Part shown: positions 10,398 through 63,607 of the stretch, in pieces
Numbering within the stretch: the stretch's first letter is position 1
Layout: every line of letters starts with the position of its first letter
Source: Candidatus Norongarragalinales archaeon
GTDB taxonomy: Archaea; Micrarchaeota; Micrarchaeia; Norongarragalinales; Norongarragalinaceae
Length of the DNA: 64,000 bases
Assembly: GCA_038884755.1 (NCBI GenBank)
Contig: JAWABJ010000001.1
Span: 256,001 to 320,000, forward strand
Direction of reading: 5' to 3'
Program-made: the position numbers and the translations under genes
Notes under the pieces: generated by a model
The model's database searches: none
What the model was told of the DNA's origin: nothing
The model's input: the letters and a program-made list of their open reading frames with translations, nothing else

Positions 10398-13300
10398 ATG
10401 GAAAACCAGCCGACCGGAGGCGAACAACCGCCTTCCATTCCAGCTAAAAGCAATCAAAAAACTTTGTGGGACAATGTTGAGGGAAAATACTATTCTTTTT
10501 GCGATTGGCTGCAAGACCACGGGCTTCCCATTTACGATTTCTTCGTTTACCCTCTTGAAGACAGGGGCATTCCTTCGCTCCCGGCTTTCGTGATTATCCT
10601 GCTGGCTTTGCTGCTGGGCGCGGGCTGGATTGCGATGGGCGGGCTGTCAGGGCTGGGACAGCAGGCTTACGCCCTTCAAGTGAGCGTTTACAGCGAGCAA
10701 GGTCCCATCGAAGGGGCAATCCTAACGCTGTACAAGGACGGCGGGGTTGTCTCGAAAACAAAGACGAATTCCGACGGGATTTCTTCTTTTGAAGAACTGC
10801 AGGCGGGGGATTACGCGCTGGACGCGGAGAAGGAAGGTTTTGAAACCGCTTCGCTTGCCGTTTCAGTCCCGCGAGAGTCAAGCGTGGACGTTACGCTGGT
10901 TTCAAAACAAAAAATCAGTTTCGAAGGCGGAAAGCAGCCTAACGGAAAGAAAACCGAAGAAGGGCCTTTCAACGAAATTGACTACGGCGACTTGTCCCTC
11001 AAGATTTTTGTTACTGATATAGCGGGCAACCCTCTTGACGCGACTGCGAACGTTTTCGACAAGAACGCGGGAACGAAAATAGGGACTGTTATCGTAAGGA
11101 ACGGCTTCGGCTCGCTCGACGGTTTGGAAGCGGGCATGGTCGTTTACGCGGACGTTTCCGCCCAAGGCCACGTGCCTTACTTGGGCAAGAACAACGCGAC
11201 CACGATTTCTGCGGAATCCCCGAATTCCATAAGCGTAAAGCTCTTCAAAATCACGAACGACACCGAGTCGAAAGCCACGCTCGTGAAAGTGCGTGATTTG
11301 AACGGAACGCCTTTGAACCAGGTTTTGATTAAGGTGTTTCGCAAGGGCAATCCTTTTGCGTTGATCATTCCCAACCAGTACACGAACGCAACCGGCGAGC
11401 TTGCGATAGACTTGAATTCAAGCGGAAATCCCGATTACAAGATTCTCGCTTCCAAAACCCCGTATGTGGATACTGAAACAAGCTGGTTCAAGGCCGGAAC
11501 GAAAGTTGAAATCACTCTCAAGAAGCAAAGCGAAATGAACCAGTCTGACAAAGACAAGGCTTCCAACCTTACCGTGACGGTCACGTTCAATGGGAGCGTG
11601 GTGGCGAATGCTGCGGTCGCCGTATTCCACGACGAGCTTGCGACGCGCGAAGGGTTTACTAACTCCCAAGGCAAAATCAGCTTTTACATCTTGAATTCTC
11701 GCGGGCTTACGGTTACGGTGAACGCTTCCAAAAACAACATGGCCGGCTCGAAGCAAGTCGCTTTGGATTCCGAGCAAGTGCAGGCGAGCGTGGAGCTTGA
11801 ACGGCGGAAGGCAAGCGTGCGCGTGAGGGCGTTTAACTATTCCAACGGGTTGTTGATTGAAAACGCGGCTTTCGAGGCGAAAACTGGAGGCGCAACTGTT
11901 TCTTCCTGCGCCGTTTCCGCACCCAACTTCGACTGCGTGCTGCAAATAGGCATAGGCTTGAACGCGGAAATAAACGCTTCCGCCCCCACGTTCGTTTCCG
12001 AAACGAAATACTTGTCCGTAAACAACGAAACCATGGCGTTGGACTTCAGCCTGCTTCCTGAATACGCGGTGCAGTCTTCCCTCATCAAAGATTTCGTGGT
12101 GACGCCCGAAGGAGGGAATTCCAACGTAACCACGCTATACCCGGGAAAACGGTATGAGGCTAAGTTTACTCTCATAGGAAAAACCAACAGTACGAGCGAC
12201 GAGTTCGGTTTTTATTTCGGCGTTGAAACCGCCCGCGCCGTAATCAAGCGCGTGACGCCGCCTTCAACCCCCACGAAGACCCTCGGTTCTACGACCGCAG
12301 CGTGCAATCCCGTGCAGATAGACTATAATAATGCGAATGCGGCGTGGGTGGATTTGACTTATGCTGGTGCGAATGGCGTGTCGAGCAAGAGCGTGAGAGT
12401 GGTTTTCGAAGTAAAGCCGCTTGGGCAGGGCGTGCAGGAGTCGAACGTTACGCTCCGCTACCGCAGTTTTCTCGTGCAAGGCGGGAAATACTACCGCAAT
12501 CCTTTGAATGCGAACGACCCGCCTGAAACGCGCTTCGAGCCGAAAAGCCCGCTTGCCTCTGGATGCAACTCGCCTACGTTCAATGCGCTTTACGCAATCA
12601 ACGGCGTGGGCGTGAGCTGCAGCGAGTACGCTTGCGTGAGCGTGTTGTTCACGCAAAACGGACAGCAGAGCGCGAAAAACAACTTTACCATGATGAATTT
12701 CGGCGAGGGCTCCACGCCTCCGGTCGTAATGCTTTACGAAATCACGTTCAAGAAAGACGTTCGCAACAATCCCGCGGACATTTCTTTTTCCTTCAACGCA
12801 CCCGGCAGTTTCATAGGCTTGGTTTCGGCGAGTTATCCCGACCAGCCCGACGAGCAGGGCACTCCGCCGCAGCCGCCGAACAAAATAGAGTTTTTGAACG
12901 GCACTCCCCAGTCTTTCTCTGCCGATTTAAGCCACTTGAAGCGTTACTCGAACATGGACGAGGGCTTCAAGTTCAACGGCGATTTCGTCATAAAGCCCTT
13001 GTCTTCCTCGAACGTTAGCGGGGAGGGCATAACTCTGCAACTCGCGCAAGGAGTTGATGCAGTCCGGCACAACGCCCTTTACAACATTCAAGCCAACGGT
13101 TCTCAAGGCGGGTGCACCCAGAATTGTAATGAGCAGGTGGAAAACAGCGCGAAGCTGCAAATGCTTTTGCGCCAGCGCAGGGACAGCGGCAGTTACATCA
13201 CCAACCCGCTTTCGCTTTACGCAATCGGCTTGTGCTCTTACGAAAGCATACTGCATTCGTTCCTGCAAGTGGGTTTGCCAAAGTGCGCCGGTTCGTTCGT

Positions 13301-16055
13301 GGAATTGAACTACACTGTGACGGTGAACGACACGCAAGGCGGCCGCGGCTGGGTTTTCTTCAACTCCACTGCGAACGGCATTACGCTAATACAAAACCTT
13401 TCGGTTTCCAAGCAACGCGGGCAGGGCATTAGTTTCGTGCAGGGCTTGGAGAACGGCGTTTACAACGGGTTTTTCAACATCAGCCTGAACGACGTGGTTT
13501 CAGGCGACATTGTGAACGTTTCGTTCCTCGCGATTACGAGCGAGACTCCCAAGTTTTCCAACTTCAAGTTTGTTTTCCACAACGGGCTGCCGAACTGGTT
13601 CGACAACCAGACCAAGCTCAACGCCATGCCTTACGCCGGCGGGCCGCCGGCGCAGTTCGACTACTTCCCATGCGGCAAGGCGGCGATTACGCTAGACATT
13701 CCGCTGGGCGGGCAGGGGCAGATTGACTTGAACTCGTCTTGCCGGGACGTGATTTTGCAAGTAGACCCAATAATGCCTTTGGACGCGATTCCCGTGGAAT
13801 TCACGCAAAGCTTCAGGAGCAACTGCGGAACCTTGCGCCTGAACCGGCTTTTCCCGCCGACCGACGGCTCGCGCGACTTGTCGCAGAAGATTCAATTCGA
13901 CATGAACCTGTACCCGCAAACGGCGTGGATTTCGTTCAACTCGCAAACCGCTGGTTTGCTTAAAGGAAATTGGTTTGACACCGACCCGCGCTTTCCCGGG
14001 TTAAACTACCTGGGCAAAGCCACTCTTCGCTTGGACTGCTCGCGCTTGCCCAACAAGTTCGTGGACATCGCGATTACTGCGAAAGCCGTCGACTCGCGCA
14101 TTCCGCCCGTGGACGGAAGCTACATTTACTACGAAGGCATGCCCCACCAGCTGATTTATTCGCTGTACAACGGCCAGCTTCCGCGCGACTTGCTTGTAAG
14201 CCCGTCTAACGAAACCACGACGGTAAAAACCCGTACGAGGGCTTTTGACGCCAGCAACCGCGTCAATTACTTCCTCATCAACCACCGTTCCACTCCAATC
14301 GGCATTTCCATCAAGGGCACGCCGTCGGAGGAAGGCATTGTAATAAACGAGTTCAGCAACCGCTTTGGCTCGGTGTATTCTCACATGATTGCGGTTTCCC
14401 ACTTGGACTTGATTACGCTCGGCAAGTACCTGCATTTCCTGGACTCGCTGCAGCTCTACCCGCCGTCCCAGCAAAACGCGATTTGGAATTCCACTTGCCC
14501 GTCGATAGACTACGTGAGCGAAGTGACGCACCAGATTCCGCGCAATTTCGTGGAAGAAGTGAAACGCATTTCGCTAATCACGGGCTTCCGCCGTTCGCCG
14601 CCCCAAAACGGGTATTGGTGCGGGCACCGCAAGGACCGCCCGCAGGGCGAGCGCACTTGCTATCCAACGATTTTGAATTGGATGCAGCCGGGAATCAACG
14701 AGACGACGCAAACGATTCAATGCCCCGCTCCCGCGTGCTTGCAGGCAAGCGAAGCCGACCCGGACTCTTACACGGCTGACGCGATAACGCTTTCGGTTTC
14801 CCCCCAGCAGCCTTTCCCGCCTGAAGGGCAGCAGTACGCCTTTTCAATCAAGGATTCGCTCGTGTTGAGCGCTGACGCGAGCGGGCTTCCCGCGGGCACG
14901 AACGTTACGGCCGCGAGCGTGGAATTCAAGAGCAAGGAAAGCGTGGACTGCCCGATTGCCGGCGCAAGCTGGTGTTCGACGACTTTCTTGAACGACGGAG
15001 TGGATTTGCAGAAGGACGCGGGCGGGTTGTGGAACATTTCTTACGCCGGCATTTCAAACGCGCAAAACGGCGAGTACGCCGTGCGCATCAAAGCGGCAAA
15101 CGAAACCGGCGGTGTTTTCTTCTACTCGCCTTGGGTTAGGATAATAGTGGAGAACAATGCCGCCGCTTGCTTTGCGTTGGGCACCCAGCGCGAGAACGTG
15201 CCGTTGTGCGCCGAGCCCGTGTGCGACCCGTTCTGCAGGCCGGATGGGACTAAGGAAATCGTGACCAACGCGGGTCCCGCCTTGAACGACCCGCAATCGT
15301 GGTGGCTGAACGACACTGTCCTGGAGTTCGTGCCTGCGGCGGAAGTGGAAGGGATTGAGAATTACGCGGGAATGCCTTTCGCTTACTTCAGGCAAAAGGG
15401 CATTCTGCAAAACGACTTTTCTTTATCCAGTCCGCTAATGCAGTGGAACTGGAACATTGACGACGTTGCAAACGCAGGATTTACGATTGAAAACGACGCG
15501 AAATGCGTGGCTGGAACAGGGTTTTACGAGCTCAAGGCGTCTAGCGCGGACGGCGAGGAATGGAGTTTCAGCGTGGCGCTTAAGAAACTGCCTTTGAGCG
15601 GGTATTTCCTGAACAACGAGCCTTCCGACTCCGACGCGGCGAGGGAAGGGTATATAGACGATTTGCCTCCAAACCCGCGTTCTGCCGTTTTCGCCAAAGG
15701 CCGGGGTTGTGGAATAGGAACAGACCCGGGTTTTGATGATGAAAAGTTTTTGTGCAACGCCAAAAACCTGGTGGTTGGAAAGCACACGCACCACGCTAGA
15801 AACAGCCAAATTCTCGATTGCTTTATCCCGTGCAAGTACAACAACTGCGGGTATTGCATCAACTTCAACCTGCCTTTCGAGCAGTACGAGTGGCAAGCTT
15901 GCCTTCCGCCGGCGAACAGGAACGACTTTTCCAGCTTCCAGGCTTTGAGGCAGGCGTCGACCAACCCCAACCTGCCTCCTGAATTGCGTTGGGCTTACGG
16001 CGTGGGGCAAGAACTGGGCGGCTGTCCGAACGAAGCGACGCGCATTTCCGATTGA
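10398..16055 (+). CDS. Giant membrane-anchored surface protein B (1885 aa), paralogue of A, rich in N-glycosylation sequons
   Basis: Same leader and TM, collinear with A for about 900 aa, Cys-rich C-terminus. Confidence 0.85.
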   Translation: MENQPTGGEQPPSIPAKSNQKTLWDNVEGKYYSFCDWLQDHGLPIYDFFVYPLEDRGIPSLPAFVIILLALLLGAGWIAMGGLSGLGQQAYALQVSVYSEQGPIEGAILTLYKDGGVVSKTKTNSDGISSFEELQAGDYALDAEKEGFETASLAVSVPRESSVDVTLVSKQKISFEGGKQPNGKKTEEGPFNEIDYGDLSLKIFVTDIAGNPLDATANVFDKNAGTKIGTVIVRNGFGSLDGLEAGMVVYADVSAQGHVPYLGKNNATTISAESPNSISVKLFKITNDTESKATLVKVRDLNGTPLNQVLIKVFRKGNPFALIIPNQYTNATGELAIDLNSSGNPDYKILASKTPYVDTETSWFKAGTKVEITLKKQSEMNQSDKDKASNLTVTVTFNGSVVANAAVAVFHDELATREGFTNSQGKISFYILNSRGLTVTVNASKNNMAGSKQVALDSEQVQASVELERRKASVRVRAFNYSNGLLIENAAFEAKTGGATVSSCAVSAPNFDCVLQIGIGLNAEINASAPTFVSETKYLSVNNETMALDFSLLPEYAVQSSLIKDFVVTPEGGNSNVTTLYPGKRYEAKFTLIGKTNSTSDEFGFYFGVETARAVIKRVTPPSTPTKTLGSTTAACNPVQIDYNNANAAWVDLTYAGANGVSSKSVRVVFEVKPLGQGVQESNVTLRYRSFLVQGGKYYRNPLNANDPPETRFEPKSPLASGCNSPTFNALYAINGVGVSCSEYACVSVLFTQNGQQSAKNNFTMMNFGEGSTPPVVMLYEITFKKDVRNNPADISFSFNAPGSFIGLVSASYPDQPDEQGTPPQPPNKIEFLNGTPQSFSADLSHLKRYSNMDEGFKFNGDFVIKPLSSSNVSGEGITLQLAQGVDAVRHNALYNIQANGSQGGCTQNCNEQVENSAKLQMLLRQRRDSGSYITNPLSLYAIGLCSYESILHSFLQVGLPKCAGSFVELNYTVTVNDTQGGRGWVFFNSTANGITLIQNLSVSKQRGQGISFVQGLENGVYNGFFNISLNDVVSGDIVNVSFLAITSETPKFSNFKFVFHNGLPNWFDNQTKLNAMPYAGGPPAQFDYFPCGKAAITLDIPLGGQGQIDLNSSCRDVILQVDPIMPLDAIPVEFTQSFRSNCGTLRLNRLFPPTDGSRDLSQKIQFDMNLYPQTAWISFNSQTAGLLKGNWFDTDPRFPGLNYLGKATLRLDCSRLPNKFVDIAITAKAVDSRIPPVDGSYIYYEGMPHQLIYSLYNGQLPRDLLVSPSNETTTVKTRTRAFDASNRVNYFLINHRSTPIGISIKGTPSEEGIVINEFSNRFGSVYSHMIAVSHLDLITLGKYLHFLDSLQLYPPSQQNAIWNSTCPSIDYVSEVTHQIPRNFVEEVKRISLITGFRRSPPQNGYWCGHRKDRPQGERTCYPTILNWMQPGINETTQTIQCPAPACLQASEADPDSYTADAITLSVSPQQPFPPEGQQYAFSIKDSLVLSADASGLPAGTNVTAASVEFKSKESVDCPIAGASWCSTTFLNDGVDLQKDAGGLWNISYAGISNAQNGEYAVRIKAANETGGVFFYSPWVRIIVENNAAACFALGTQRENVPLCAEPVCDPFCRPDGTKEIVTNAGPALNDPQSWWLNDTVLEFVPAAEVEGIENYAGMPFAYFRQKGILQNDFSLSSPLMQWNWNIDDVANAGFTIENDAKCVAGTGFYELKASSADGEEWSFSVALKKLPLSGYFLNNEPSDSDAAREGYIDDLPPNPRSAVFAKGRGCGIGTDPGFDDEKFLCNAKNLVVGKHTHHARNSQILDCFIPCKYNNCGYCINFNLPFEQYEWQACLPPANRNDFSSFQALRQASTNPNLPPELRWAYGVGQELGGCPNEATRISD

Positions 16056-16143: not shown

Positions 16144-16205
16144 AATAGGATTTGTGCAAAGCGCTTTTATTAAGATTGAGTTCAATTGTTTTTATAGCTG
16201 GTTTA

Positions 16206-17753
16206 ATGGAAGAAGCTGCTGTTTCGAAAAGGTTTTCACAGAAGTTCGGCGCGCAAATTAGCTTTGCTAGAACGCTTTATGCCGGCCTCAAAGGAGAAAA
16301 GAATTTTGATTTCAACCTTGCCCTTGCGAATTACTTGCATTCCCACCAAGCGGACGATCAGCTTGTTTTAAGCGCTTTACTAGCCGGTCTGAGTAAAAAA
16401 GAGCTGGAGGAAATCAAAAAAAAAGGTGTGGCCAAGCACGTGTTGGAGCAGCACGAGAAAGAATGGGGTTTGGACAGGAAAGCAGTTAAAGATTTCAGTG
16501 AAAACTTGAAAGAGGCTTTAGAGATTATTGCAAGCTATATACAGTTGAAAGCAAATCCGGAAATGGATGCAAACGCGCATTTTGCAGCCGCGCTTGAAGC
16601 CCCCAAGCTACGCGCTTCGTTGTTGCGCGCTGCGGTATTGAACTTCGAACTGGAAAAACCATCAAAACAATCTGCTTTGCACGTGGAAGTGGCTGAACAC
16701 GTTTACATTCCGTGGTTGAACCTCTTGGGTTTGGTTGACATGAGCAACGAACTCGGAGAAAAAGTTTTGAAAATCAAAGACCCTTTAGCATACGAAAAAC
16801 TCTTTCAACACTTGGAAACAATGCCTGTCAGTAAACGTCCGTTCGGCAAAATGATTGCCTCCTTGAAAAAGAAAATCAGTAGGCTGGGGTTGGAGATTGA
16901 AGACGTTCAGTTCAGGAGAAAATCGATTTACAGCATTTACCAAAAACTCAAGGCTTACGGCTGTCCCGTTGGAAATCCAGCCTACGACCACGACCCTCGA
17001 CTTTTAGACGATTTGTATGGGTTGAGGGTTGTTTTGAAGGCTGACGAGACTGAAAGCGAAAGCGAACAAGTTGCAAAGGCAAGACGAGTGTTGGATGTAG
17101 TACGCTCTTCATTCGAAATGCCTAAGGAGGCAAGGATAGACGAGTATGTCGCTGAAAAAGCAAAACCAAGCGGCTATAAGGCTATTCACACGCCGGTTAT
17201 TGGACCGCAGAATTTGCCGATAGAAATTCAAACAGTAACCAAACCATGGCACGCTGCGAACGAAGCTGGTCTTTCTTCCCATTTTTTCTACAAACTTTCT
17301 AAAGCTGTTAGCAGTCCTTTGAGGCAGGTGTTGGTTCGCATTCAAGAAGAGTTGAAGCGGGGCGTGCCGATAGAACGAGTTTTCAGGAGCATAGGCAAGC
17401 CGTTGATTTACGTGACAACCGACCGGTTTGGTCCGCAAGACCACGCTCTTCCTGCAGGTTCTACTCCCTTGGACTTGTGGTACGCGCATGGTTTCCGCAA
17501 GAAGTACGAAGAAAAAATGAAGGGAAAAATATTTTTCGAAACCGTAATGGTAAACGGTGAAACCGTTCCACTAACTACTATCCTGAAGCCAGGCGATCAC
17601 GTGCGTTTTGACGTGAGCGGAAGCCCGCCGAAAGTAGAGCTTATTGACCGGTTTGCGAACGAAGTAGCAACGCCTGAAGCGAGGGAAGGGTTGTGGAAGT
17701 TGAGGAGAAAACTGGGAAAATGGCGTTGGCTCAGGCGAAAGGAAGAGAGCTAA
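16206..17753 (+). CDS. Long RelA/SpoT homologue: degenerate HD region, (p)ppGpp synthetase domain, TGS domain
   Basis: R.KSIYSIYQK, DLYGLRVV, KPSGYKAIH, EIQ, LPAGSTPLD..Y, VNG..VPL...L..GD.V. Confidence 0.85.
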   Translation: MEEAAVSKRFSQKFGAQISFARTLYAGLKGEKNFDFNLALANYLHSHQADDQLVLSALLAGLSKKELEEIKKKGVAKHVLEQHEKEWGLDRKAVKDFSENLKEALEIIASYIQLKANPEMDANAHFAAALEAPKLRASLLRAAVLNFELEKPSKQSALHVEVAEHVYIPWLNLLGLVDMSNELGEKVLKIKDPLAYEKLFQHLETMPVSKRPFGKMIASLKKKISRLGLEIEDVQFRRKSIYSIYQKLKAYGCPVGNPAYDHDPRLLDDLYGLRVVLKADETESESEQVAKARRVLDVVRSSFEMPKEARIDEYVAEKAKPSGYKAIHTPVIGPQNLPIEIQTVTKPWHAANEAGLSSHFFYKLSKAVSSPLRQVLVRIQEELKRGVPIERVFRSIGKPLIYVTTDRFGPQDHALPAGSTPLDLWYAHGFRKKYEEKMKGKIFFETVMVNGETVPLTTILKPGDHVRFDVSGSPPKVELIDRFANEVATPEAREGLWKLRRKLGKWRWLRRKEES

Positions 17754-22315: not shown

Positions 22316-23644
22316 ATGCGCCGCATTCGCCTTGCGCGGGATTTGGGTTTTTGGGATTCCGTGCTTTTGGGCATAGGCTTTATAGTAGGCTCGGGAATTT
22401 TCATAATGCCCGTAGTCGCGGCGCAGACTGCAGGCTCTTGGTCTATTTTCGCTTGGTTTGCCGCGGGATTGTACACCATACTTACTGGATTGTGCTTCGC
22501 GGAGTTGGCGGTGCGCAGTCCAAAAGCAGGCGGGTTGTACGCGTATGCTCACGATGTTTTCGGGGATTTCCTCGGCTTTTTCACCGGCTACTCGTTTTGG
22601 TTGGGGTATTGGATTACTATTGCAGTGGAAATGCTCGCGTTGGCGTGGTATTTGAGTTTTTTCACGGGCCTTTCGTTCGAACTGCGCCTTGCTATTGCCG
22701 TTTTCATCGGGTTCGTTTTCACGCTAATAAACTACAAGGGCGTGAGGCTGGGAAGCAGCACTGAAGACGTTCTTACCGTAGGAAAACTCGTTCCACTGGG
22801 AATTCTTGTAGTCGCTGGCTTGGCTTCGTTCAACCCCAGCGTTTTTTCCGCAGGCTTCGCAGCCGTGAATGCTGGACACATCGCTTTAGCATTCCTTTCT
22901 TCGTTCATTCTCGTGCTGTGGGCTTTTCAAGGAGTGGAAATAATAACCGTTCCGCAAGAGGAAATCAAGAACGCCAAGAAAACCGTGCCTAAAGCCATAA
23001 TCGTTTCAGTCTTGAGCGTAATGGCTTTGTACCTGCTCATTGCGCTTGTCGTGCTGGGCAGCGTGGACTGGAAGAATTTCGCCGCTTCGGAATCAGCGTT
23101 GGCCGACATAAGCGAAGTTTTGATAGGAGGTTGGGGCGGGGCGCTTTTGGCAATAGGCGGCTTGGTTTCGATCCTCGGTGCTTTGAATGCGGTAATCCTC
23201 GCTTCCGCACGCATAAGCTTTGCAATGGCTCGAGACGGGCTTTTCCCGAGGCTTTTCGAGCACTTGCACGGCAGGCATGCGACGCCCGACTACGCCTTGA
23301 TTTTGCAGTTTGTTTTCGCTGCTTTGCTCGTGTGGTTGTACCGTGACTTCATTTTCTTGGCTTCGCTTGCGGTGTTCTTCACGCTCATACCTTGGTTTTT
23401 GAGCTGCCTGGCTGCGTGGAGAGTGCAATTGCGGGAGCACAAGCACAGCATTCTCAACCACGTCGCTGTCCCGACTCTCGCGACGGTTTTCACTGCCCTT
23501 CTCATAGTATACCTGCTTCCACAATACTGGCCGTTCGCCTTGCTGAGCGGAATCCTTGGTTTGGCTTACTTTTCAGTCAAAAAACGAGAGCACAGAACGC
23601 GCTTTCACGTGCGGGGGGAGGAAAGCAAAACGCTCAAGCCCTAA
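22316..23644 (+). CDS. APC-family amino acid permease
   Basis: IVGSGIF, AEL....P.AGG.Y.Y, G.E.......EE.KN...T.P.A, about 12 TM segments. Confidence 0.92.
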   Translation: MRRIRLARDLGFWDSVLLGIGFIVGSGIFIMPVVAAQTAGSWSIFAWFAAGLYTILTGLCFAELAVRSPKAGGLYAYAHDVFGDFLGFFTGYSFWLGYWITIAVEMLALAWYLSFFTGLSFELRLAIAVFIGFVFTLINYKGVRLGSSTEDVLTVGKLVPLGILVVAGLASFNPSVFSAGFAAVNAGHIALAFLSSFILVLWAFQGVEIITVPQEEIKNAKKTVPKAIIVSVLSVMALYLLIALVVLGSVDWKNFAASESALADISEVLIGGWGGALLAIGGLVSILGALNAVILASARISFAMARDGLFPRLFEHLHGRHATPDYALILQFVFAALLVWLYRDFIFLASLAVFFTLIPWFLSCLAAWRVQLREHKHSILNHVAVPTLATVFTALLIVYLLPQYWPFALLSGILGLAYFSVKKREHRTRFHVRGEESKTLKP

Positions 23645-24560
23645 ACCGCAAAGGAAATTTTGAAGCGTGAAAGCCGATTTTTTCCCAAACCCTTTCCGGT
23701 GTCAAAGCCTTTAGTTCTTGAACGAGGCTTTCATCTTCCAAGTCTTTGTAGCCCAAAGGCACGTCCACGCCGTCTATGCGCTTTCCGTCTTTCGAAACGT
23801 GCAGCGAGAACGGCGCACGGCATAGTTTTCCAGAAGGCGTTTGTGAAGGGTCGAGCACGAGCATTCGGTTTTTTTTCTCGTGCCCTCCGCTAACTTTGAA
23901 CGAAACTTGCTTTTGCACTTCGGCCGCCCATTTGCCTGTGAACGTAGAGAGAGGATTTTTCTCTGAATACTGCACTGTCTTCGCATAATCGCTTGCCGGC
24001 ATTTGCTTTTGCAAAAGCAAGAAAACGTGGAACGAACTTCCAGTCCAGCAAACCAGCAAATCGTGTTTTAGTGGAAAGTCTTTGTCGTCTTGAATTGCGT
24101 TCACGAAATGCAATGCTGCTTGTTGCGCCTGTTCTTGCGTAATCCCCTCGCCCCTGTCTAAATCAAAGAAAATTCGTTCGATGGGCTTGCCTGGGTTCTC
24201 GTTGTTCGTGGCGTAAAGCAATTCGCTTAGCTTTCGCGGAACGAAATAACGCCACGCGAGTTCTTGTTTTTTCGAAAGCCAGCCGGTTTTTCTGACGTCC
24301 GCCAAATGCCCTTTGCGCAATTCGAGAAGCTCGGAGGTTATAACGCTTTCGTCGGCCAGGTTTTCAACCCACAGCGGCGGCAGTTCGCTGCCGCGCTTGA
24401 GCAAAGGGCGGTATGACGGAATCCAGTTTTTGGCCGCGAGTTCTTTTCCCTTCAAAAACTTGCGGAGTTTGCGGGCGACGAGCGAATAGTAAAGCAATAC
24501 GTCCAAATCGCCGTAAGGCTCTAGAAGGCTTTTCGAAGCGAGCTTTTCAAGCTTGTTCAC
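23634..24560 (-). CDS. Archaeo-eukaryotic primase (AEP) superfamily, stand-alone LigD-polymerase-like protein
   Basis: FFDLD (motif I), WTGSSFHV (motif II), R.PFSL; N-terminal 'VLLYY..VA' resembles LigD Pol domains. Confidence 0.7.
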   Translation of the reverse strand: MNKLEKLASKSLLEPYGDLDVLLYYSLVARKLRKFLKGKELAAKNWIPSYRPLLKRGSELPPLWVENLADESVITSELLELRKGHLADVRKTGWLSKKQELAWRYFVPRKLSELLYATNNENPGKPIERIFFDLDRGEGITQEQAQQAALHFVNAIQDDKDFPLKHDLLVCWTGSSFHVFLLLQKQMPASDYAKTVQYSEKNPLSTFTGKWAAEVQKQVSFKVSGGHEKKNRMLVLDPSQTPSGKLCRAPFSLHVSKDGKRIDGVDVPLGYKDLEDESLVQELKALTPERVWEKIGFHASKFPLRFRA

Positions 24561-27522: not shown

Positions 27523-28518
27523 GTGGTTTTTTTGAAGGAAATAGGCGATTTGCAGCATCCAGTCAAAGCTTGGACTGCTTTAACCAGGGTTATAGCACAC
27601 TTGGGGGAAATTCCACAAGAGGATTACTTGCGTAGAAACTATCCCGTCTTGGCTGAAGCGGTTGATTACCACGGCGGTTTGCATTCTTTGGTCGAAGCAA
27701 ACAAGCAAGATCTTTCAATTCTTTTGCAAAACGCCTCCGAGCGGCACGAAACTTCCTTGTTGCATTGGAGTCGTGCGATGGACGGTAACGAGCACGCGCG
27801 GGAAAAGTTAGTTGGTCTTTACAAGCGGCAGGCGGAAAGACTGGCATCAAAGCTTTATTCTCACAAGCTCCGAGGGACTTGGAAGGATTGGGTTAGAGTG
27901 GACGTTGAAGACTTGGTTCAAGAAGGGCTAGTTTCCCTTGTGCAAGCCCTTCCCCGATACGATCCTTCAAAATCCAAGTTTCCTAAGTTTGCCCACTTGG
28001 TGATGGAGGGCGCTATGAAGCACTACTTGCGCGATAAAGCGCAAGTAATCCGCAAGCCGGCATGGGTTCAAGAGCTTAGGTCTAAAATGTCCAAGGCTTT
28101 CTTCGACTACCAGTCTAGGCACGGCATGAAGCCTACTTTTGAGCAACTGGCAAAACAAGCGAACGTTCCCGTGGAGCACGTGATAGAAGCTTTCACTCAC
28201 TACCAGCCCGTTTCCTTGCAAGCGGCTTTAGATTTTGAAGGCACGGGAAAGGAAGGACGGTTTTTTCAGGAGCCGGCGGCCCGGGACGAGTTGGAGCCGC
28301 TTGCTTTGAAAATGATTTTCTACAAGGCTTTGCGTGACCACGTGAAACTGTCGAAAATGCAGGCTGTGGCGTTAGGCATGTCTGCAGATGGGCATTCTCT
28401 CGAGGAGATTGCAACGCACTTAGGAGTTTCACCCGACTCTGCAGGGCAGTTGGTTTACCAGGCGAAAAAGAAAATAAGGGAAAACCTGCTGTTCAAGCGC
28501 GAGCTTGGTATAAACTGA
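27523..28518 (+). CDS. Bacterial-type sigma-70 family factor (SigB/F/FliA-like) with N-terminal extension
   Basis: Region 2 EDLVQEG..L..A..RYDP...KF..., HYLRD...IR.P; region 3 PT.EQLA....V; region 4 SLEEIA.HLGVS......A.KK.R. Confidence 0.85.
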   Translation: MVFLKEIGDLQHPVKAWTALTRVIAHLGEIPQEDYLRRNYPVLAEAVDYHGGLHSLVEANKQDLSILLQNASERHETSLLHWSRAMDGNEHAREKLVGLYKRQAERLASKLYSHKLRGTWKDWVRVDVEDLVQEGLVSLVQALPRYDPSKSKFPKFAHLVMEGAMKHYLRDKAQVIRKPAWVQELRSKMSKAFFDYQSRHGMKPTFEQLAKQANVPVEHVIEAFTHYQPVSLQAALDFEGTGKEGRFFQEPAARDELEPLALKMIFYKALRDHVKLSKMQAVALGMSADGHSLEEIATHLGVSPDSAGQLVYQAKKKIRENLLFKRELGIN

Positions 28519-28570
28519 AAACGCCTTTGAAGAAACGCTTGAAATATTTTCGTATAAAAAATTATTGTTT

Positions 28571-29248
28571 TTAAGCTTGTTTTGACTTTCTTTGCTTGTC
28601 TTCCTCTTCCTGCTTTCGCGAAAGCCTGCGTTTCGTAACTTTCAACGCAAAACGCAGTTCCGCCTCCAGAAGCGCGAGGTATTGAGAAATGTCTTTTATC
28701 GTTTGCTTTATGTCCGGCTGGATGTTGAACTCCAGCGCGTTGACTCGGCGGTTGGTTTTTTCGATTTCCTTCAACAAACGCTTCAAAGCCGCTTCGGTCT
28801 GCGCGAGTTTTATCGCGTATTCAAGCGAAAGCTCGAAGTCGGAAACGGCTTCGTCGAACTTGGCGCTCGAGCCCACTATGGGGTAGCCCCTTTGTTCCAA
28901 GCTCCTGTGCACGTACTCACCTTCTATCGCCGGAATCCTGACTCCCATGATGTTTTTGGTGTAAACGCTGATTTGAGGCGCGCGTTCCGACGCCAATGCC
29001 GCAGTCTGCAAAAACACGGTTCCATGAAAGGCTTCGGCGACGGCAAGACTCTTGTATGACTTTAAAACTTGGTTGTCCAACTGCGTGCGCAAGTCTTGCG
29101 CTTTCTTTATGATGGCGAAAAACTCGAGCACTAGCGCATCGCGCTTTTGCTTGAGAATCGTGTGCCCTTTCTGGGCCAGCGCGAGCTTTTGCTTTGTGTT
29201 AAGCAATTCCATTCGCGTCGGCTTGATGCCTTCCTTCATTTTTTTCAC
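28571..29248 (-). CDS. atpD: A/V-type ATP synthase subunit D
   Basis: KPTRMEL, GH..LK.KRDAL, EIEKT.RRVNALE. Confidence 0.95.
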   Translation of the reverse strand: MKKMKEGIKPTRMELLNTKQKLALAQKGHTILKQKRDALVLEFFAIIKKAQDLRTQLDNQVLKSYKSLAVAEAFHGTVFLQTAALASERAPQISVYTKNIMGVRIPAIEGEYVHRSLEQRGYPIVGSSAKFDEAVSDFELSLEYAIKLAQTEAALKRLLKEIEKTNRRVNALEFNIQPDIKQTIKDISQYLALLEAELRFALKVTKRRLSRKQEEEDKQRKSKQA

Positions 29249-38449: not shown

Positions 38450-39289
38450 TTACTTTCTTTTTCCCGTTTTTTCCTGCTTGCGGTTTTTCGGAGGAATCCA
38501 CACCGCGGTTTGCGTTTTTGAGTAGAGGAAGTAAACCGCGCCCAGGCCGATTGCGAGGTAACCCGCGTAGTAGAGGAAGTCCACCTGATGCCCGGTTTGG
38601 TACAAGTCTTTTTCAACCAAGTATCCAAAGATGATGTCGAATATCGAGCGGGCGGCAAAAGCGAAAGCCAACAACATCCAGTACCAGCGCGTTTGCTTAT
38701 AGCCGAACTGCGTCGCCTCTTCGGAAAGTATGAGCGCTATTGAAAGTGAAACGACGAACAAGAGAAAGTCCCCAGCTATGTAAGTGAGGTTGATCGTCCG
38801 TTCCAAACCCGTCGTCCCTGCCGTGAAAATCGATGGGGCGCTGAAAACCAGAATTGCGCTGATTATCGACGCGCCGATTCCTGCTATGACGTTGAATTGC
38901 GACAAGCGGGTTTCGCCCAAAACGAATTTTCCGAACCACTTGACTAGCGCGAAAATCAAGAGCGGGTATCCCAAAACCCAAAAAACGTCTGAAACGGAAG
39001 GAAACGGCGCCGGAATGTGCAGGAGGACTTCCTGGACGAGCCAGGCGACGTCGCCGAAAAACCACGCGAGAATGCCCATGTGCACGAAAAGCCAAAAGCG
39101 CCTGTTCTCCTTGTCGTACTGCGAGGCTACGAACGCGGCGAGAGTGTAGTATACGGCGTAAAACGAAAATGCGACGTTCAGGACGTTTCCCGCGATGAAA
39201 ACCGATCCGGCGTCAAGCGTTTTTATGAACGCGTGGAACAAGACAGCAAGCGCTACGAGCAAAACCCCGATTTTCTCTTCAAAACGCAT
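38450..39289 (-). CDS. Polytopic membrane protein resembling membrane sensor input domains, with no output domain
   Basis: About 8 TM segments; W..GD..W....E......PFPS.SD.FW..GY motif. Confidence 0.7.
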   Translation of the reverse strand: MRFEEKIGVLLVALAVLFHAFIKTLDAGSVFIAGNVLNVAFSFYAVYYTLAAFVASQYDKENRRFWLFVHMGILAWFFGDVAWLVQEVLLHIPAPFPSVSDVFWVLGYPLLIFALVKWFGKFVLGETRLSQFNVIAGIGASIISAILVFSAPSIFTAGTTGLERTINLTYIAGDFLLFVVSLSIALILSEEATQFGYKQTRWYWMLLAFAFAARSIFDIIFGYLVEKDLYQTGHQVDFLYYAGYLAIGLGAVYFLYSKTQTAVWIPPKNRKQEKTGKRK

Positions 39290-39298
39290 TTTCGGTTG

Positions 39299-40333
39299 TT
39301 ACCTCGTTATTTGGAACGATTGGACTTCGCTCAAGTGCTCTTTCGCCTTCCCGCTTTCAAAGTGCTTTCTCGCCGGCGCCACGAGACCGTCGACTTCTGA
39401 AGCTACGGCGTTTTTAAAGTCCGCAGGATGCAATTCGCCTTTGGCGAAAGCCTCTTCGACTTGGGCGTAGGAGGAAAACTCAGCGTCCCCGCCGAACTTC
39501 ACCGGCCTTTCCACCTTGAAAGAATCCTTGCACACGAAAATCAAGTCGCGAGCGTAAGCAAGAACTGCATTCCCTTCGACGGTTTTCTCGGGGCAGAACG
39601 CTTTCGACAGCTTTCTTTTTATCTCATCGTGCGAGTCGTGGATGAATATTGCCGAATCGGGCTTGCTCTTGCTCATCTTGATTTCCTCTCCCGAAAGCGA
39701 GGAAAGCAATTTGTGGTGCAATGCAACAGGCGCGATCCACCCCATTTTCGGGAATACCTCGCGTGCGAGCATGTGCACTTTCCGCTGGTCCATTCCCGCG
39801 TGCGCAATGTCCGCGCCCAAAAACTTGATGTCGACGCTTTGCATGGACGGGTAGATGTACTTCGCAACGTCCAGCGTCTCGCTTTCACTGCGCCCGAGTA
39901 TTTGCATGGTGCGCGTGGCGCGCGCAAGCGTGACGTGAGTGGAAAAGCGCAGGACGCTCTGCCAGTATTCGTCGTTGTGGCGGTAAAGCTCGGTGCCGCG
40001 CACGATTTTCGCCTTGGGGCAGTAAAAGCGGAATGCTTCCTCGTAGTATTTCGAGGCGCTTTGGATTTTTCCGATGTCGCCGCCTAGCTTGCCGTTGATT
40101 ACGGAATGCCAGTCGGCAAGGAAAACGGTGGTCTCGACGCCGGCTTTGGAAAGGTTGTTTATCACGCTTCCGCTCACGAGCAGGGAGCCCACGTGCAACA
40201 ACCCGGATATTTCAAAACCAATGTAGTGCTTCGGGTGCGCGTTGGTTTCGAAAAGCTGCTTCAGCTCGTCTTGCGTGACGACTTCTTGAACAGGCGGCTT
40301 GAGCGCGAGGTCGAGTTTCGAATGCAAGTCCAT
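39299..40333 (-). CDS. tyrS: Tyrosine--tRNA ligase (archaeal type)
   Basis: YIGFEISG.LHVG, YP.MQ..D, GMDQRK.H, KMSKS. Confidence 0.96.
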   Translation of the reverse strand: MDLHSKLDLALKPPVQEVVTQDELKQLFETNAHPKHYIGFEISGLLHVGSLLVSGSVINNLSKAGVETTVFLADWHSVINGKLGGDIGKIQSASKYYEEAFRFYCPKAKIVRGTELYRHNDEYWQSVLRFSTHVTLARATRTMQILGRSESETLDVAKYIYPSMQSVDIKFLGADIAHAGMDQRKVHMLAREVFPKMGWIAPVALHHKLLSSLSGEEIKMSKSKPDSAIFIHDSHDEIKRKLSKAFCPEKTVEGNAVLAYARDLIFVCKDSFKVERPVKFGGDAEFSSYAQVEEAFAKGELHPADFKNAVASEVDGLVAPARKHFESGKAKEHLSEVQSFQITR

Positions 40334-40373
40334 GAAAAACCAGTTTTTATTATTTCACCGAGTAATAAAAACC

Positions 40374-40757
40374 ATGCTTAAAATCAGGCGCAACGCGCTG
40401 GAAAGCGCGCTGCAAGGCGCGCGCGAGACGCACCCCGACGAGTTCATTTGCCTGCTGCGCGGGGATAAAGTTAAAGACAGCAAGGACGATTGGCTCGTCA
40501 CGGAAGTAATCATACCGCCTTTCGCTTCCTACGAGCTCAACGCTTCGAGCTTTTCCCCGTGGTTTATTCCCGCAAACTCGAAAGAGCTTGCCACATTCCA
40601 CTCGCACCCTTCGCCGAGTTCTGCATACCCGTCGCGCCAGGATTTGAAAATGTTTTCCAACAGCCTTTTCAATCTAATCGCCTGCTTTCCCTATAGAATT
40701 CAAGACACTAACTCTTTCGACTCCAAGGGAAAGAAAATTTCTTTCAAGATAGTGTAA
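40374..40757 (+). CDS. JAMM/MPN+ metalloprotease
   Basis: P.EF..LL.G and HSHP......PS..D motif. Confidence 0.9.
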   Translation: MLKIRRNALESALQGARETHPDEFICLLRGDKVKDSKDDWLVTEVIIPPFASYELNASSFSPWFIPANSKELATFHSHPSPSSAYPSRQDLKMFSNSLFNLIACFPYRIQDTNSFDSKGKKISFKIV

Positions 40758-40764: not shown

Positions 40765-41280
40765 TCATCCCGGTGGCGTTGGAACTTCATAGTCTATTTC
40801 CGGAGATGGTTCCAGCGAAGGCTGTGGTTGTGTGTCTTCCACTAACTCTTCTTCGCTATTTTCAACAAAAACATCTTCCGGCGTTTCTTCCTGTTGTTGT
40901 CCGCTTTCACTTTCTTCTGACGATTGAATGTTTTCATTATCTTCTGACGATTGAATGTTTTCATTAACGGTTTTTTCTACCGTATTTTTTAAAGTTTGTG
41001 GGGAAGGGTTCAATTCCAAGTTTTTTTCAATAGAACTACTAACCTCTCTTGAAGGTAATGGCGGGTGCAAGAAGAACGCGGAAGTCAAAACCAAACCCAA
41101 AAATAAGATTATCGCCGCGTTTAAGGACGGAATTCCCCTGTCTTCCAGCGGGTATATGAACCACTCGTAAACCCTCAACCCCTTGTTTTCAAGCCAATCG
41201 CAAACTCCGTAATAATAGTTTTCAAGCTTTTCCCAAAAAGTAGGAGTTTTTGAATCCCCTTGTCCCTTCTCTCCGTACAT
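40765..41280 (-). CDS. Short (171 aa) member of the giant-protein leader family with acidic low-complexity tail
   Basis: ENYYYGVCDWLENKGLRVYEWFIYPLEDRGIPS + TM, then an E/S/P-rich tail. Confidence 0.8.
   Translation of the reverse strand: MYGEKGQGDSKTPTFWEKLENYYYGVCDWLENKGLRVYEWFIYPLEDRGIPSLNAAIILFLGLVLTSAFFLHPPLPSREVSSSIEKNLELNPSPQTLKNTVEKTVNENIQSSEDNENIQSSEESESGQQQEETPEDVFVENSEEELVEDTQPQPSLEPSPEIDYEVPTPPG
40913..40966. repeat. Perfect 27-bp tandem duplication (NENIQSSE[D/E] x2)
   Basis: TCTTCTGACGATTGAATGTTTTCATTA at 40913-40939 and 40940-40966. Confidence 0.95.
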
Positions 41281-41295: not shown

Positions 41296-42327
41296 TCAAC
41301 TCTTCATTACGGTTGCGTACTCTATGACCACTAGGTTGGGGGTGTATTCTTGTGCTTTGCTTCCTCTGGGTGACGTGTATCCTGTTGGGTTGTCTGCGAA
41401 TGCTACTCTGGGGTAGTTGTTTGTTACTGCTCCGTATAGTGGGTTTCCGTATTGGTTTGGTTTTTGGTTTTGCCAGCGGACTTCGTATCCGAAGGGTTTG
41501 TCTGATATCGTGTTGCTCCAAATGGGGTTGTAGTTGGAGTCCCATTTGGGTGCTGTGAATTGTCGGTTTTTTTGGTCGTAGGTTATCGTCCAGTATGGGT
41601 CGCAGTTTAGGGTGTTGCATACTCTTGGGTTTTTGGATCCGGAGTATGGTGTTTTTTCTGGAATGGCTATTATGAGTATTCCGTCGTTTTTGAGTGGTCC
41701 GGCTGTGGGTTCGTTTGAGTCCATTATAATGATTGTTGCTTGTTCCTGGGAGTTGTAGTTGTAGTATAGTGGGTTGACTGCTACTTTTCCTCCTAGTTCT
41801 TGGGATGCGTTGCCGTAGCCTACGGGTTTGTATCTGTCGATTTGTGGGCTTATTTTTTGGAAGATTGTGCCTGCTGTGAATGTTTCTTTTGAGTCTGCGG
41901 TTGTGGCTTGTGGAGTGGTTAGAATCAGTACTTCGTTTGTTGCTGTGAATGCGCCGGGTATTTGCGAGGATATTCGAATGAAATCTCCCCTAAGAAGAGT
42001 TCCATCCCTTTCGAGTATTATTCCCGTTTGAGGGAGAGACATTAAAGTCAGCGTGTCTTCCTTGTTAGTAAACTTTGAACCTCCCGAGTTTGAATCGGAA
42101 AACTTTAGAGTGCATTTGTCTGCTACCGTCAAGGAATACCCGCTTCCCGGTTCAAATGTTGTCGCCAAAGTGAAATTTTTGTAATAGTTGTAGTTGTCGA
42201 TGATTTCGTACTTCCAAGGGCCGCTTTCAACAACGCAGTTGTTTTTGATTGACTCGAAGTCGATGGTTTGACTCCAGCCTATTTGATTCTTGCCTTCAAA
42301 CAATTCAATGCTGTAAACTCCGCGCAT
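41296..42327 (-). CDS. Surface/S-layer-like protein, possibly truncated or chimeric
   Basis: Asn/Thr/Tyr-rich, beta-strand-like sequence; no signal peptide; composition shifts within the gene. Confidence 0.5.
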   Translation of the reverse strand: MRGVYSIELFEGKNQIGWSQTIDFESIKNNCVVESGPWKYEIIDNYNYYKNFTLATTFEPGSGYSLTVADKCTLKFSDSNSGGSKFTNKEDTLTLMSLPQTGIILERDGTLLRGDFIRISSQIPGAFTATNEVLILTTPQATTADSKETFTAGTIFQKISPQIDRYKPVGYGNASQELGGKVAVNPLYYNYNSQEQATIIIMDSNEPTAGPLKNDGILIIAIPEKTPYSGSKNPRVCNTLNCDPYWTITYDQKNRQFTAPKWDSNYNPIWSNTISDKPFGYEVRWQNQKPNQYGNPLYGAVTNNYPRVAFADNPTGYTSPRGSKAQEYTPNLVVIEYATVMKS

Positions 42328-45166: not shown

Positions 45167-45719
45167 AGCACTTGAACGTCGAAGCCATGTAGTTTACCAT
45201 TTTCAAGTCTTGCTTGAGCGAAACGGGTATTAGCGAAGTGAGTATTGCGTTGTAGGAAGGGCATTCGAAGTAATGCAGCCTTACCGTGATTTTTTCTCCC
45301 GCGATTTCTTTTTCGAAGGAAATTACCGTCGCCTTGCCGAACGCTTTTCCTTGCGAAAGGGTTTTCCTTTCCTGCGAATCGAGCGAATCTATAGTATCCG
45401 CGGTCAGGGACTGCACGTTTTCGCTTGCAACAGTTATTTCAACCACTTCCGCAATTCCGCGTCCGGATGCGCTGAAACTCACGCGGATTGGGCTGGAAGG
45501 ATCGGGCGATTCGACGGCCCTGAACGACTGCGGATAGCTTATCTCGAATCCAAGCTCGTTCCTGTAAGCAAGGAAATCGTCTTGGCTTACGCCCGAGTAG
45601 TCTTCAAACGCATTTGCCCCGAAGAAGGGCTGAACGTAACCCAGTCCCACGAGAATGCCTACCGCTAGGATTACCGCCGTGACAATCGATATTACCGTTT
45701 TGTTCATGTGTTTCATCAC
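45165..45719 (-). CDS. Membrane-anchored protein with PsbP-like signature, last gene of the giant-protein cluster
   Basis: N-terminal TM, Y.N..GF.ISYP..., C-terminal M..TF; start overlaps the stop of the 3040-aa gene. Confidence 0.7.
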   Translation of the reverse strand: MMKHMNKTVISIVTAVILAVGILVGLGYVQPFFGANAFEDYSGVSQDDFLAYRNELGFEISYPQSFRAVESPDPSSPIRVSFSASGRGIAEVVEITVASENVQSLTADTIDSLDSQERKTLSQGKAFGKATVISFEKEIAGEKITVRLHYFECPSYNAILTSLIPVSLKQDLKMVNYMASTFKC

Positions 45720-48700
45720 GCGTTTCGTTCTCTCATCTGGTTCGCGGTGTTTTCCAACGCGATTTTGGCTTTGGAAGCGGCTTCCTCTTCCTTTCCTTCC
45801 ACCACTTGCACGCTCAAAATTTCTTCGCCCGACGGGGTTTTTTCTACTATCACGAGTCCTTGAGACTGCATTTCGTCGAGCGTTTGCCTGGCGTTTTTGA
45901 CCGCGTCGAAGCTTGCGTCTCCGTTCGCTATTGCCGCGAGCGTTTCGACGCTACCCTGCGCTTGCTCCCTCGCGTCTCCCGCGGCGGTTTCTTCGGAATC
46001 CCCTTCTTGGGAGTAATCGCAAGGCGCGCCTATTTCTTTTTCAGTCAATTCTGCTTCAACGTTTCCTTGGAACGTGGGTTCGACGTCGGGCGCGAACAGG
46101 GAATCAAACAATTCAATGTAGTCATAAGAACCTCCGCTGGCGTCGATGAAGAACATGGCGTACGCAGGAATCTTCTCTCCCTTTTGCACTACGCCACTGT
46201 AGGGAATGTCGAGTTTCTTTACGTACAGGCATGCTTCCTTCCCTTCGCAAGCCTGTTGGGTGAAGCAAAGCCTTTTTTCCTTGTCGCACTTTTTGGTGGC
46301 AGGGTCGTAGTAGCAATACGCTACCGTGGAAGGATTGCCGTTTTCGGCGAAATGCATTGAAACCAAATAGTTCGTGACTCGTTCGGCCAAAGGCGCTTCG
46401 ACAGGCTCGCTTTGCACGTTGGTAATCAAGCTGAGCAACGCGGTGGGCGCGTATTGCGCTAGCAGCCTTCCGATTCTCGCTATTCCCCTTGGCTTCTGCA
46501 CTTGGGGGGTTGAAACCGGTTGCGTAGGCGCCCCGCCTGTTTCTACTTGCTGCGGCGTTCCTCCTGTTGCAGGCGCAGCTCCGCCTGCTCCTGCCCCGCC
46601 GCCCGTAGGCCCGCCGATATTTTGCCCTCCGTGAACCGTTCCGAAGTTTTGGTTTCCGTAATTGATATTGAAGAAGTTGTTGTTTATCCGCTCGTAAGCG
46701 TTTTTGGTTGTGGAAAAAACTCCGCCGGGATTTGTCGCCGCCCTGTAGTAGGAGTAATAGGACGCCCTGGCGCTTGTAGCTGCTTGTCCTGCAGCCGACG
46801 ACGCGCCTGCAGCGGGAATTTCTTGGGGCAGGAACGGGACAGGAAGATAGCGTTGGTATGGCACGGGCAGCATGTTAGGGCGCCTTACTATGGCTCGGTA
46901 CGGCACTAGCGCAGTTCCTTCTTGCGTTATTCTTGCTGTTGCCTTTCGTTCGACGTCGGACAAAATCCTGTTTTTCACGTCCGGAGTGATTTCTCCGAAG
47001 TTGAACTGGTGGCTTTGCCTTCCCGAACGGAAGAATTCGTTGTACAAATAACGCATTTCTTCGGATTCGGAGCCTGTGAGCGTGCTTTTAGCGACGAGTT
47101 CGTCGAGCCTTTGCGCCGCGAAGTAATCGCTGGCGTAGCCTTCAATCACCGCGCCTGTGACTGGCGAGAGTGCAACTGCAGTGAACGCGCCTGTTTGCCT
47201 TCCGAAGCTTCCGCCCGTGACAGCCGCAATGTTGCTTCCTCCGTAAACCGCAGTCGGGTCTTCAACCGAACCGGTTATTGCCGAGCTTACGTAAGTGAAC
47301 GTGGCGCTTCCCAAAGCGCGCAAGGCGATTTGCCTGAATGCGGCTGAAGCCGGCCCGCCGAAGCCGGCGTCTATGAACGCCTGGGGGTACATCACGAAAC
47401 GCAAGTGAGTGCAGAAGTCTGTTCCGGTGCAGGCGTTTGAAGCTGAAACTCCTTTCACGATTCCGCACGAAGAGAGGGTTTCAACGTTGTACAAAATGAG
47501 GTTGGCGCACAACCTTGCTATAAACCCTTGCTGGGGGCCGGGAATGAACGCGCTCGCGCAAGCTGCTGCAGTCCCTCCGTGCCAGCCTATTGCCAACGCA
47601 TTTTTCATTCCCTGCACGTTGGCTTCGCACAACGCGCCGTCGTCGAAAAACGGTTTGGAACTGTCGACGAAACCGTTGGTGTTGAGGTTGTCAAACACTT
47701 GCGGGGAGAGCGAGTACATCGAACTCACGATTTGCCCGGCCATCTTGTAGTCGTTCGCGTCGGCTTTCTCCGAGTACTTGCCTATTTCAATGAAGTCAGG
47801 CAAGCCGTTGAAGCGCATGTTCACCGGGCTTTCGATTATTTCATTGCCGGTATACACGAACAAGTCGTCAGCGGGCATGAGCAAAGGCGCGTTGGCGAGG
47901 GTTTCCTCGCAGCTCATGAGTTTTTGCGAGCGGAATTCGATTTGCAGCGGCTTTTTGCCGCCCTCGATTTTCTTTGGGTCGAACTCGCAGAACCCTCCGC
48001 TTGCGGCGGGGTTCAAGTGCGCTTCGACCAAGTACGCGCCGCATCCCGTGAAGTCGATTTTAGCCTGTTCCGAAACCTTGAACTCCTTGAATTTCGACTG
48101 CCTTCCGATTTGCTCGGCCATTTGCTTCATGGCGTCGTCCAAATCGGCGGCAGCGCGCGTGTTGGACAAGTGCAGGACGAAGCTCATTTTCCACGGGAGG
48201 TTGGTGCAAACCGTCTTCACGCTTGAAGTGTCGTTGGTTTCGGCGTCGAATTTCATGGACGCCACGCTCATGAAGTTGCAAATCGCGTTTATCGCCGAAT
48301 CGTAAGTGCAGAAGTTGTTTTGGCAGTACGCGTAGTTGAAGCCCGGGTCGCACTGCACTTGCTTTTTCTTCAGCTGCGCGCCTGCGACGGGCGAGGGAGT
48401 GGGCGTGGGTTTTTCTCCCGTCGCTCCAACCCAAAGCGTTCCTATTGGCGTGGACGGGTAGAGCGACTCGCTTCCTGCGGGGGGAGTAAACACTTGCACT
48501 TTCAAGGTTTTAACTCTCTCTTCGCCGGTTCTCGCGCCTTTCGCTATGATTTTATAGTCGCTTGCGCTGGCGTGCTTGGCTTCGCATTCGAGGAAGATGC
48601 TTTCGCCTTTCGCAAGGATTTTTCCTCCGGCCACGCTTGCGCCGCGCGCGTTGTCGTAGTAGAAGCAGGATATCTGCTGCCCGTCGTTGGGGAATGAAAG

Positions 48701-54829: not shown

Positions 54830-54854
54830 GTGAATCAATCACTGTTCCATACTT

Positions 54855-63402: not shown

Positions 63403-63607
63403 TCCAATCGCCTCTTTTTTTTCGGTGGGTGTTTTTTCCTGCTTAAAACGCGTTTTTCCCCGCGTTCCAGGCAGTGAAATGCGAACGAATCTGCTATTTA
63501 AAAACCTTGCTATTCCACAAATATGTTTTGATAGGTTTGGAAATGTTTTCAGCGGACTGGATTTCAAGAACGCTTTTTCCCGCCGAAAACCGCCAGCCGG
63601 TATATCC

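Follow-up and report, generated by a model that had tools for sequence, protein, structure and literature searches.

A sigma-70-like protein carrying an N-terminal helical repeat in a Norongarragalinales archaeon, and its possible roles in a cell with archaeal transcription machinery

What can a bacterial-type sigma factor do in an archaeon? The question is raised by a stretch of 64,000 nucleotides of Candidatus Norongarragalinales DNA (hereafter the window), which contains a sigma-70-like gene of the SigB/F (group 3) type on the plus strand (27523..28518, GTG start, 331 aa). Archaeal initiation depends on TBP, TFB, and TFE, as PMC7289017 confirms. Sigma-70 genes in DPANN archaea had been noted in the preliminary description of the locus, rightly so, since a family of them (fam00359) has been described, with unclear function and with the Woesearchaeota stressed (Castelle 2021, PMC8204110). 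The published passage on fam00359 resembles the present case in pairing a sigma-70 homologue with archaeal transcription machinery and in excluding mis-binning; that passage says nothing of repeats at the N-terminus, of several origins, or of how the clamps compare. The literature searched, in which subscription journals were sparsely covered, contained no paper on repeat-fused archaeal sigma factors, and the word sigma is absent from the main text of PMC12892359 and PMC8561730. DPANN sigma-70 genes are thus already published, and what is new here is the repeat-sigma fusion and the mismatch between the archaeal clamp and a retained docking triad.

The gene is present in a single copy in the genome of the window (G000), according to a genome search. 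The Pfam model Sigma70_r2 matches residues 100-173 above its cut-off (47.4 bits), while r3 (20.4 bits, E 5.7e-4) and r4/r4_2 (17.8/23.3 bits) score below theirs; we accept domains 3 and 4 because the predicted fold supports both. An AlphaFold2 model built from a 45-row alignment (pLDDT 77) is matched by sigma-factor folds along its entire length in a fold search. Domain 2 (residues ~73-175, 27739..28047, plus strand), which holds the Pfam r2 match, fits 2o7g with Z 10.8 and an rmsd of 2.2 over 88 residues. Domain 3 (residues ~180-226, 28060..28200, plus strand) is helical in the model and reaches Z 7.1 against the SigF fragment 1l0o, and the helix-turn-helix of domain 4 (28282..28506, plus strand) reaches Z 9-10 to sigma-4 structures, with a recognition helix (PDSAGQ) from which the sigma-70 arginines are missing. 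Among NCBIfam models SigBFG ranks best (E 2.9e-21), although far under its cut-off; the sigma70 superfamily model alone exceeds its cut-off among the 25 of 53 NCBIfam matches listed. The best PDB sequence match is 8x6g_H, the 256-aa chain of Staphylococcus aureus SigB (E 1.1e-17; fold Z 12.3). Domains 2, 3, and 4 follow one another in order, and in place of region 1.1 the N-terminus is formed by a repeat unit. The earlier identification of a group 3 sigma factor with regions 2, 3, and 4 and an N-terminal extension of about 70 aa is upheld by these results (the extension measures about 72 aa), and the loss of the sigma fold that had been named as a possible refutation was not found in the model or the fold search.

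The extension ahead of the sigma core contains a single helical repeat unit (residues 16-56, 27568..27690, plus strand; GxxP...HGG motif) of a kind related to HNH_repeat (PF18780), a module common to the order that the preliminary description had missed. A profile of 20 segments, all taken from relatives and a few of them out of register, matches the window unit at iE 8.6e-6 among 72 proteins, and the unit is the best match of this relatives-only profile (1.1e-3) among 9640 six-frame open reading frames of the genome. The window unit has no direct match to PF18780 at E 0.1, nor in the search of its own genome; it is homologous to PF18780 proteins through the repeats of relatives, some of which do match (E 9e-12 in L006, 2.7e-6 in L024). 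In relatives, tandem units of 60-65 aa, up to about eight copies, precede RpoD-, FliA-, or SigB/F-like cores. Since the repeat sits on cores from different parts of the sigma tree, fusion or shuffling would have occurred more than once. A tandem pair of repeat-sigma genes is present in G026 (C54:6700-10300; L003, L006, L042), and the second gene of this pair has a TAA between a long repeat array and the sigma core. G034 and G061 carry repeat-only genes that have no sigma core (L190, L184, L183).

A cleaner profile that included the query identified the repeat in nine of the 68 order genomes and, more widely, in 2496 proteins among 1.84 billion representatives. The best 150 of these 2496 include 94 repeat-only proteins and 3 with a sigma core, and partners in the 56 scanned are Mrr/ResIII helicases (2), SNF2 helicases (3, of which two also carry a methyltransferase), and helix-turn-helix arrays. 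Compared with PF18780 proteins, the window unit is single, net acidic (-3), and fused to a sigma core. Modelled alone, the repeat forms a helical bundle (pLDDT 82), whose best fold match (Z 5.9) is within the background for small helical domains; no solved structure matched it in sequence, and the top match was an unrelated coiled repeat. Because the repeat by itself has no clear structural match, its predicted DNA binding is drawn from its association with such partners elsewhere.

The sigma gene occupies a variable cargo slot, another feature that the preliminary description had passed over. The left border is pyrF of subfamily 2 (TIGR02127; 26666..27517, plus strand), which ends 5 nt before the sigma gene, exactly as first described, and the two are likely co-transcribed. 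The right border is the gene for A/V-ATPase subunit D (atpD; 28571..29248, minus strand), convergent and 52 nt downstream. The order pyrF-sigma-(Nudix)-atpD is also found in L002, L053, L054, L055, L056, and L057, with a sigma orthologue of ~58-61% protein identity. In L055 and L056 the sigma gene is followed by a Nudix gene, and a by-eye match of the junction sequences indicates that the window keeps a relic of its start (28519..28545, plus strand). In congeners the slot is empty (G003) or holds an unrelated 284-aa gene plus Nudix (G004), and in L053 there is a second, divergent sigma. Four other full-length orthologues (54-68% identity) were identified among 71 matches from 3380 candidates; three of the seven metagenome loci examined are orthologous, and the other four are weaker, bacterial-looking matches. 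A second variable slot lies between atpB and atpD, where congeners have different small genes (L163:1149-1493, L164:2153-2545, and L056:2858-3433), two orphans and what is by eye a hexapeptide-repeat protein. The left end of L056 (2-574) looks chimeric or foreign, with a fragment resembling glutamate dehydrogenase, also by eye, in place of the start of pyrF.

Upstream of pyrF are an H+-PPase gene and a stand-alone LigD primase-polymerase-like gene (23634-24560, minus strand; under the Pfam cut-off). The surroundings had been called clearly archaeal; the nearest neighbours, however, include genes less typical of archaea (subfamily 2 pyrF, H+-PPase, and the LigD-like gene). Elsewhere in the window, four giant proteins of 1838-3040 aa (4839-10355 and 10398-16055, plus strand; 45716-54838 and 54892-61005, minus strand) carry Ig-like and carboxypeptidase-regulatory-like repeats and are likely surface proteins. 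A tandem FtsZ pair (61186-62256 and 62335-63654) is encoded on the minus strand, and a Prok-JAB domain gene (40299-40757, plus strand) has neighbours on the opposite strand. Open reading frames at 41296-42327 (low GC, 0.448), 40765-41280, and 38450-39289, all on the minus strand, have no Pfam match.

Could the gene be misassembled, a contaminant, or a neutral passenger in decay? We consider this highly improbable. In favour, GC3 is lower in the sigma gene (0.553), which also ranks last in codon adaptation among the 15 window genes tested. Run X1, the one run with this stretch and possibly the source sample, reaches 28 of 30 bins at ~4x depth; the contig pieces listed from it span 27525-28548, and none of those listed bridges the junction with pyrF, the kind of check suggested at the outset. 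Against this, the same neighbours occur in the six other loci named above, so that the misassembly feared in the preliminary description was looked for and not found, and the gene lies on a 714-kb contig (C1) together with archaeal Rpo1N. Its frames are intact, and dN/dS is 0.11-0.22 overall, compared with 0.05 for atpD, 0.10 for pyrF, and 0.09 for Nudix as control genes. The closest orthologue pair has a dN/dS of 0.22 (repeat 0.11, sigma-2 0.13, sigma-4 0.32, and sigma-3 0.88, the latter from 12 changes only), and saturated pairs give 0.11-0.16. The sigma gene is intact and under purifying selection.

The genome in which this gene is maintained (927 kb, 9 contigs, 93% complete; Norongarragalinales) encodes archaeal transcription machinery. 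Its Rpo1N shares 95-96% identity with records labelled Micrarchaeota and Norongarragalinales, and TFB is present. TBP was not found in the 93%-complete assembly. In G001 the TBP gene lies just past genes whose G000 counterparts open contig C2, and for this reason the G000 copy probably fell into an assembly gap. In the order as a whole, 61 of 68 genomes encode TBP. The host had been described as one that uses TBP and TFB; this is borne out by TFB, by Rpo1N, and by TBP at the level of the order, but not by a TBP in the assembly itself. The TBP of the order is of a single-repeat kind, with one Pfam match each in open frames of 93-182 aa (L043-L048 among others), and would therefore have to work as a dimer. 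Replacement of TBP by the sigma protein was considered and rejected, since TBP is encoded in genomes that also carry sigma genes, G001 among them. Nor was a second polymerase that could use sigma found: G000, at 93% completeness, has one copy of the catalytic Rpb1_2 domain, a single archaeal subunit, and no alpha-CTD scored above the cut-off in any of the five genomes tested.

Sigma factors dock on the clamp of bacterial polymerase, and the passages on this interface in PMC8321222 and PMC3326312 name sigma residues 403/406/407/409 and beta-prime R275/E295/A302. At the three beta-prime positions the archaeon's own Rpo1N clamp has I/L/H, with E at R293 and R297. These states are invariant in 45 of 45 order-level rows and are essentially those of 34 other archaea. 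The net charge of the clamp is -4, versus +5 in Escherichia coli. Since the clamp is acidic and does not have R275/E295/A302, use of the sigma protein by the cell's own polymerase appears unlikely from these alignments. A new interface on the Rpo1N clamp or flap, on TFB, or on the single-repeat TBP would make the protein an accessory initiation factor or an inhibitor, and the homology of the clamp helices, the retained R278, and the slow change of sigma-4 (dN ~0.21 versus 0.30-0.47 for the other domains, G000 against relatives) are compatible with such a role. We regard it as improbable, given that the charge-reversed clamp is the standard archaeal one and unchanged across the order, and that the sigma gene is missing from congeners, including the empty slot of G003.

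The sigma side of this interface presents a different picture. Region 2.2 of the window protein (27910..27924, plus strand) retains D130-x-x-Q133-E134, equivalent to E. coli D403/Q406/E407, and this triad is invariant in five of five orthologues. Position N409 is L, and the donor-like group also differs there. Of the 49 polar positions that the donor-like group conserves, the orthologues keep only 11, and the triad accounts for three of these (P=0.009). Among archaeal sigma rows, D403 is kept in 40/43 and Q406 in 31/43, counts that are biased because the rows were gathered with a region-2 profile; E407 is kept in only 19/47. Residues H167, R170, D171, and E184 are kept; their sigma-70 equivalents, R441, D445, and E458 among them, belong to the promoter-reading regions 2.4/3.0, and the positions of these three are invariant in five of five orthologues. 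Group 3 sigma factors vary at the residues for -10 melting and -35 reading. In the orthologues the positions of S428, T429 (K/R/Y), and W433 are changed, F427 and an aromatic at 430 are kept, and the region 4.2 (-35) helix is variable, with its basic residues lost and no Arg.

A docking triad that is kept while melting and -35 residues drift could reflect use on a bacterial polymerase. The protein might enter a bacterium (host, prey, or neighbour) and dock there on the beta-prime clamp through region 2.2; it would then either sequester the polymerase, as a sigma poor at melting, or redirect it, and a new DNA specificity would come from the repeats. Erosion of the docking residues of sigma in Hodgkinia, along with that of the clamp, is reported in PMC8321222. 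The same source reports that region 2.2 mutants fold differently, and the triad may therefore be kept for structure; the bias of the row counts and the frequent loss of E407 also weigh against docking. The sigma protein has no hydrophobic leader by sequence inspection, and without a signal peptide the delivery route is hypothetical. We judge this cross-domain role to be less likely than not, though well ahead of use by the cell's own machinery and, as the main rival, not far behind the reading preferred below.

The wider family bears on the same point. Within the order, 25 of 68 genomes have sigma-2 matches (as many as 6 in one genome), as do 50 of 401 genomes sampled from the phylum, and none was found in four control archaea. 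Mis-binning may account for some of these matches: many of the loci have neighbours that match G000 genes, and others do not. The loci yielded 47 distinct sigma-like ORFs; one duplicate fragment was then dropped, and one ECF-like row was left out of the counts and trees that followed. RpoD-, FliA-, and SigB/F-like forms are all represented, and most archaeal copies have sigma-2, -3, and -4 in order, with long branches. In the main tree (39 rows, 17 archaeal and 22 presumed bacterial; LG+G4), the window clade groups with group 3 sigmas (98/98) and is sister (93/93) to sigma-GGDEF proteins (P0007-P0015; one labelled Armatimonadota), with a stem of 1.26 changes per site. A single archaeal origin of these sigmas is rejected (AU p=0.0067, for 39 rows with long branches under LG+G4). 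A 112-row tree in quick mode is too weak to force multiple origins, and its starred branches force one change. The gene was likely acquired from a bacterium. It shares HYLRD and PAW-QEL motifs with bacterial SigB/SigF and sigma-GGDEF proteins at ~26-33% identity and differs from them in the altered T429 and 4.2 helix, the N-terminal repeat, and the absence of GGDEF. Bacterial group 3 factors differ further in their setting, as the archaeal cell contains no bacterial core and no anti-sigma gene was found among the neighbours.

Repeated capture of different sigma types, with up to six matches per genome, and the three-domain layout kept in most archaeal copies would fit a protein that acts on bacterial polymerase. 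Bacterial hosts have been raised for some DPANN in a passage of Castelle 2021 (PMC8204110), and the putative Micrarchaeota hosts named in the relevant part of PMC12892359 are archaea, which speaks against such a target. The order also carries lytic-transglycosylase (SLT) domains (36/68) and RelA/SpoT domains (25/68), but neither is linked to sigma genes: SLT occurs in 13/25 genomes with and 23/43 without sigma (p=1.0) and RelA/SpoT in 12/25 and 13/43 (p=0.19), and G000 and G001 have no SLT match. The SLT genomes of the Norongarragalinales include congener G004 (for example, L211-L222), a hint of contact with bacteria, and 101 of 401 phylum genomes have such domains, one being the unpublished G094. 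Archaeal peptidoglycan hydrolases are prominent in Nanoarchaeota, according to the portion of PMC12352652 that treats them. The window itself encodes a RelA/SpoT-domain protein (16152-17753, plus strand; E 4.5e-17, 533 aa, GC 0.46), in which inspection by eye suggests an altered EIQ-R motif and an N-terminus that is HD-like but degenerate.

Phage-encoded sigma factors redirect host polymerase, and the archaeal protein resembles them in being a divergent sigma kept by an organism without its own bacterial core. The two differ in that phage sigma is produced within the host, whereas the archaeon would need a delivery route. Look-alikes in an atlas include phage sigma clusters (Uroviricota), which we treat as a lead only. 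Conflict with foreign elements is another conceivable setting, in which the protein would bind incoming DNA (foreign, or single-stranded and AT-rich) instead of regulating the cell's own genes. Such a role is suggested by the restriction-type nucleases and helicases among the other partners of the repeat and by the patchy, fast turnover of the slot. We hold it to be improbable: the genes neighbouring sigma include no defence genes, the sigma protein has no nuclease domain, and none of 127 pattern matches in viral contigs is a relative.

The preliminary description offered a repurposed DNA-binding regulator or an effector in a bacterial partner and chose neither. Both are kept here, and our tentative preference, short of an even chance, is that the protein is a polymerase-independent DNA-binding regulator inside the archaeal cell. 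With no core to dock on and a likely DNA-binding module, a free-standing regulator is the most economical explanation; the clamp without docking residues and the purifying selection agree with it. In 2013 Rinke et al. reportedly found archaeal sigma factors and suggested that they are DNA-binding regulators. The sigma gene would be expressed from the promoter and transcript of pyrF, and its repeat is predicted to add DNA grip. Regions 2.4/3.0, sigma-4, and the repeat may jointly bind promoter-proximal DNA, and the bound protein would most plausibly block or modulate TBP/TFB loading and not open the DNA. A lesser dependence of Norongarragalinales on hosts, argued in a part of PMC12892359, also counts for regulation in the archaeon itself.

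Several observations count against a free-standing regulator. Such a protein need not keep the triad, which is present in all five orthologues. Basic residues are lost from the recognition helix, the single repeat is acidic, and it lacks a clear structural match. No conserved target genes were seen, and there is no autoregulatory or sigma-linked motif upstream of the gene, where the sequence is alike with or without sigma. A scan for sigma-type promoters near the gene returned 2 sites versus 1.1 expected, a meaningless difference. A generic regulator also leaves unexplained why sigma-2 is absent from the four control archaea. Functions beyond those considered here share a small probability, comparable to that of a role in defence. 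A broader proposal, that Micrarchaeota repeatedly captured bacterial sigmas, added repeat DNA-binding modules, and use them on the RNA polymerase of bacterial hosts or prey, we consider doubtful, slightly more so than the effector role of the single protein. If the protein is a regulator, a sigma scaffold would have found a second use that needs no core polymerase, with a modular repeat added to it. If it is instead an effector, an archaeal protein would be controlling transcription in bacteria, which would point to bacterial hosts or prey of Micrarchaeota.
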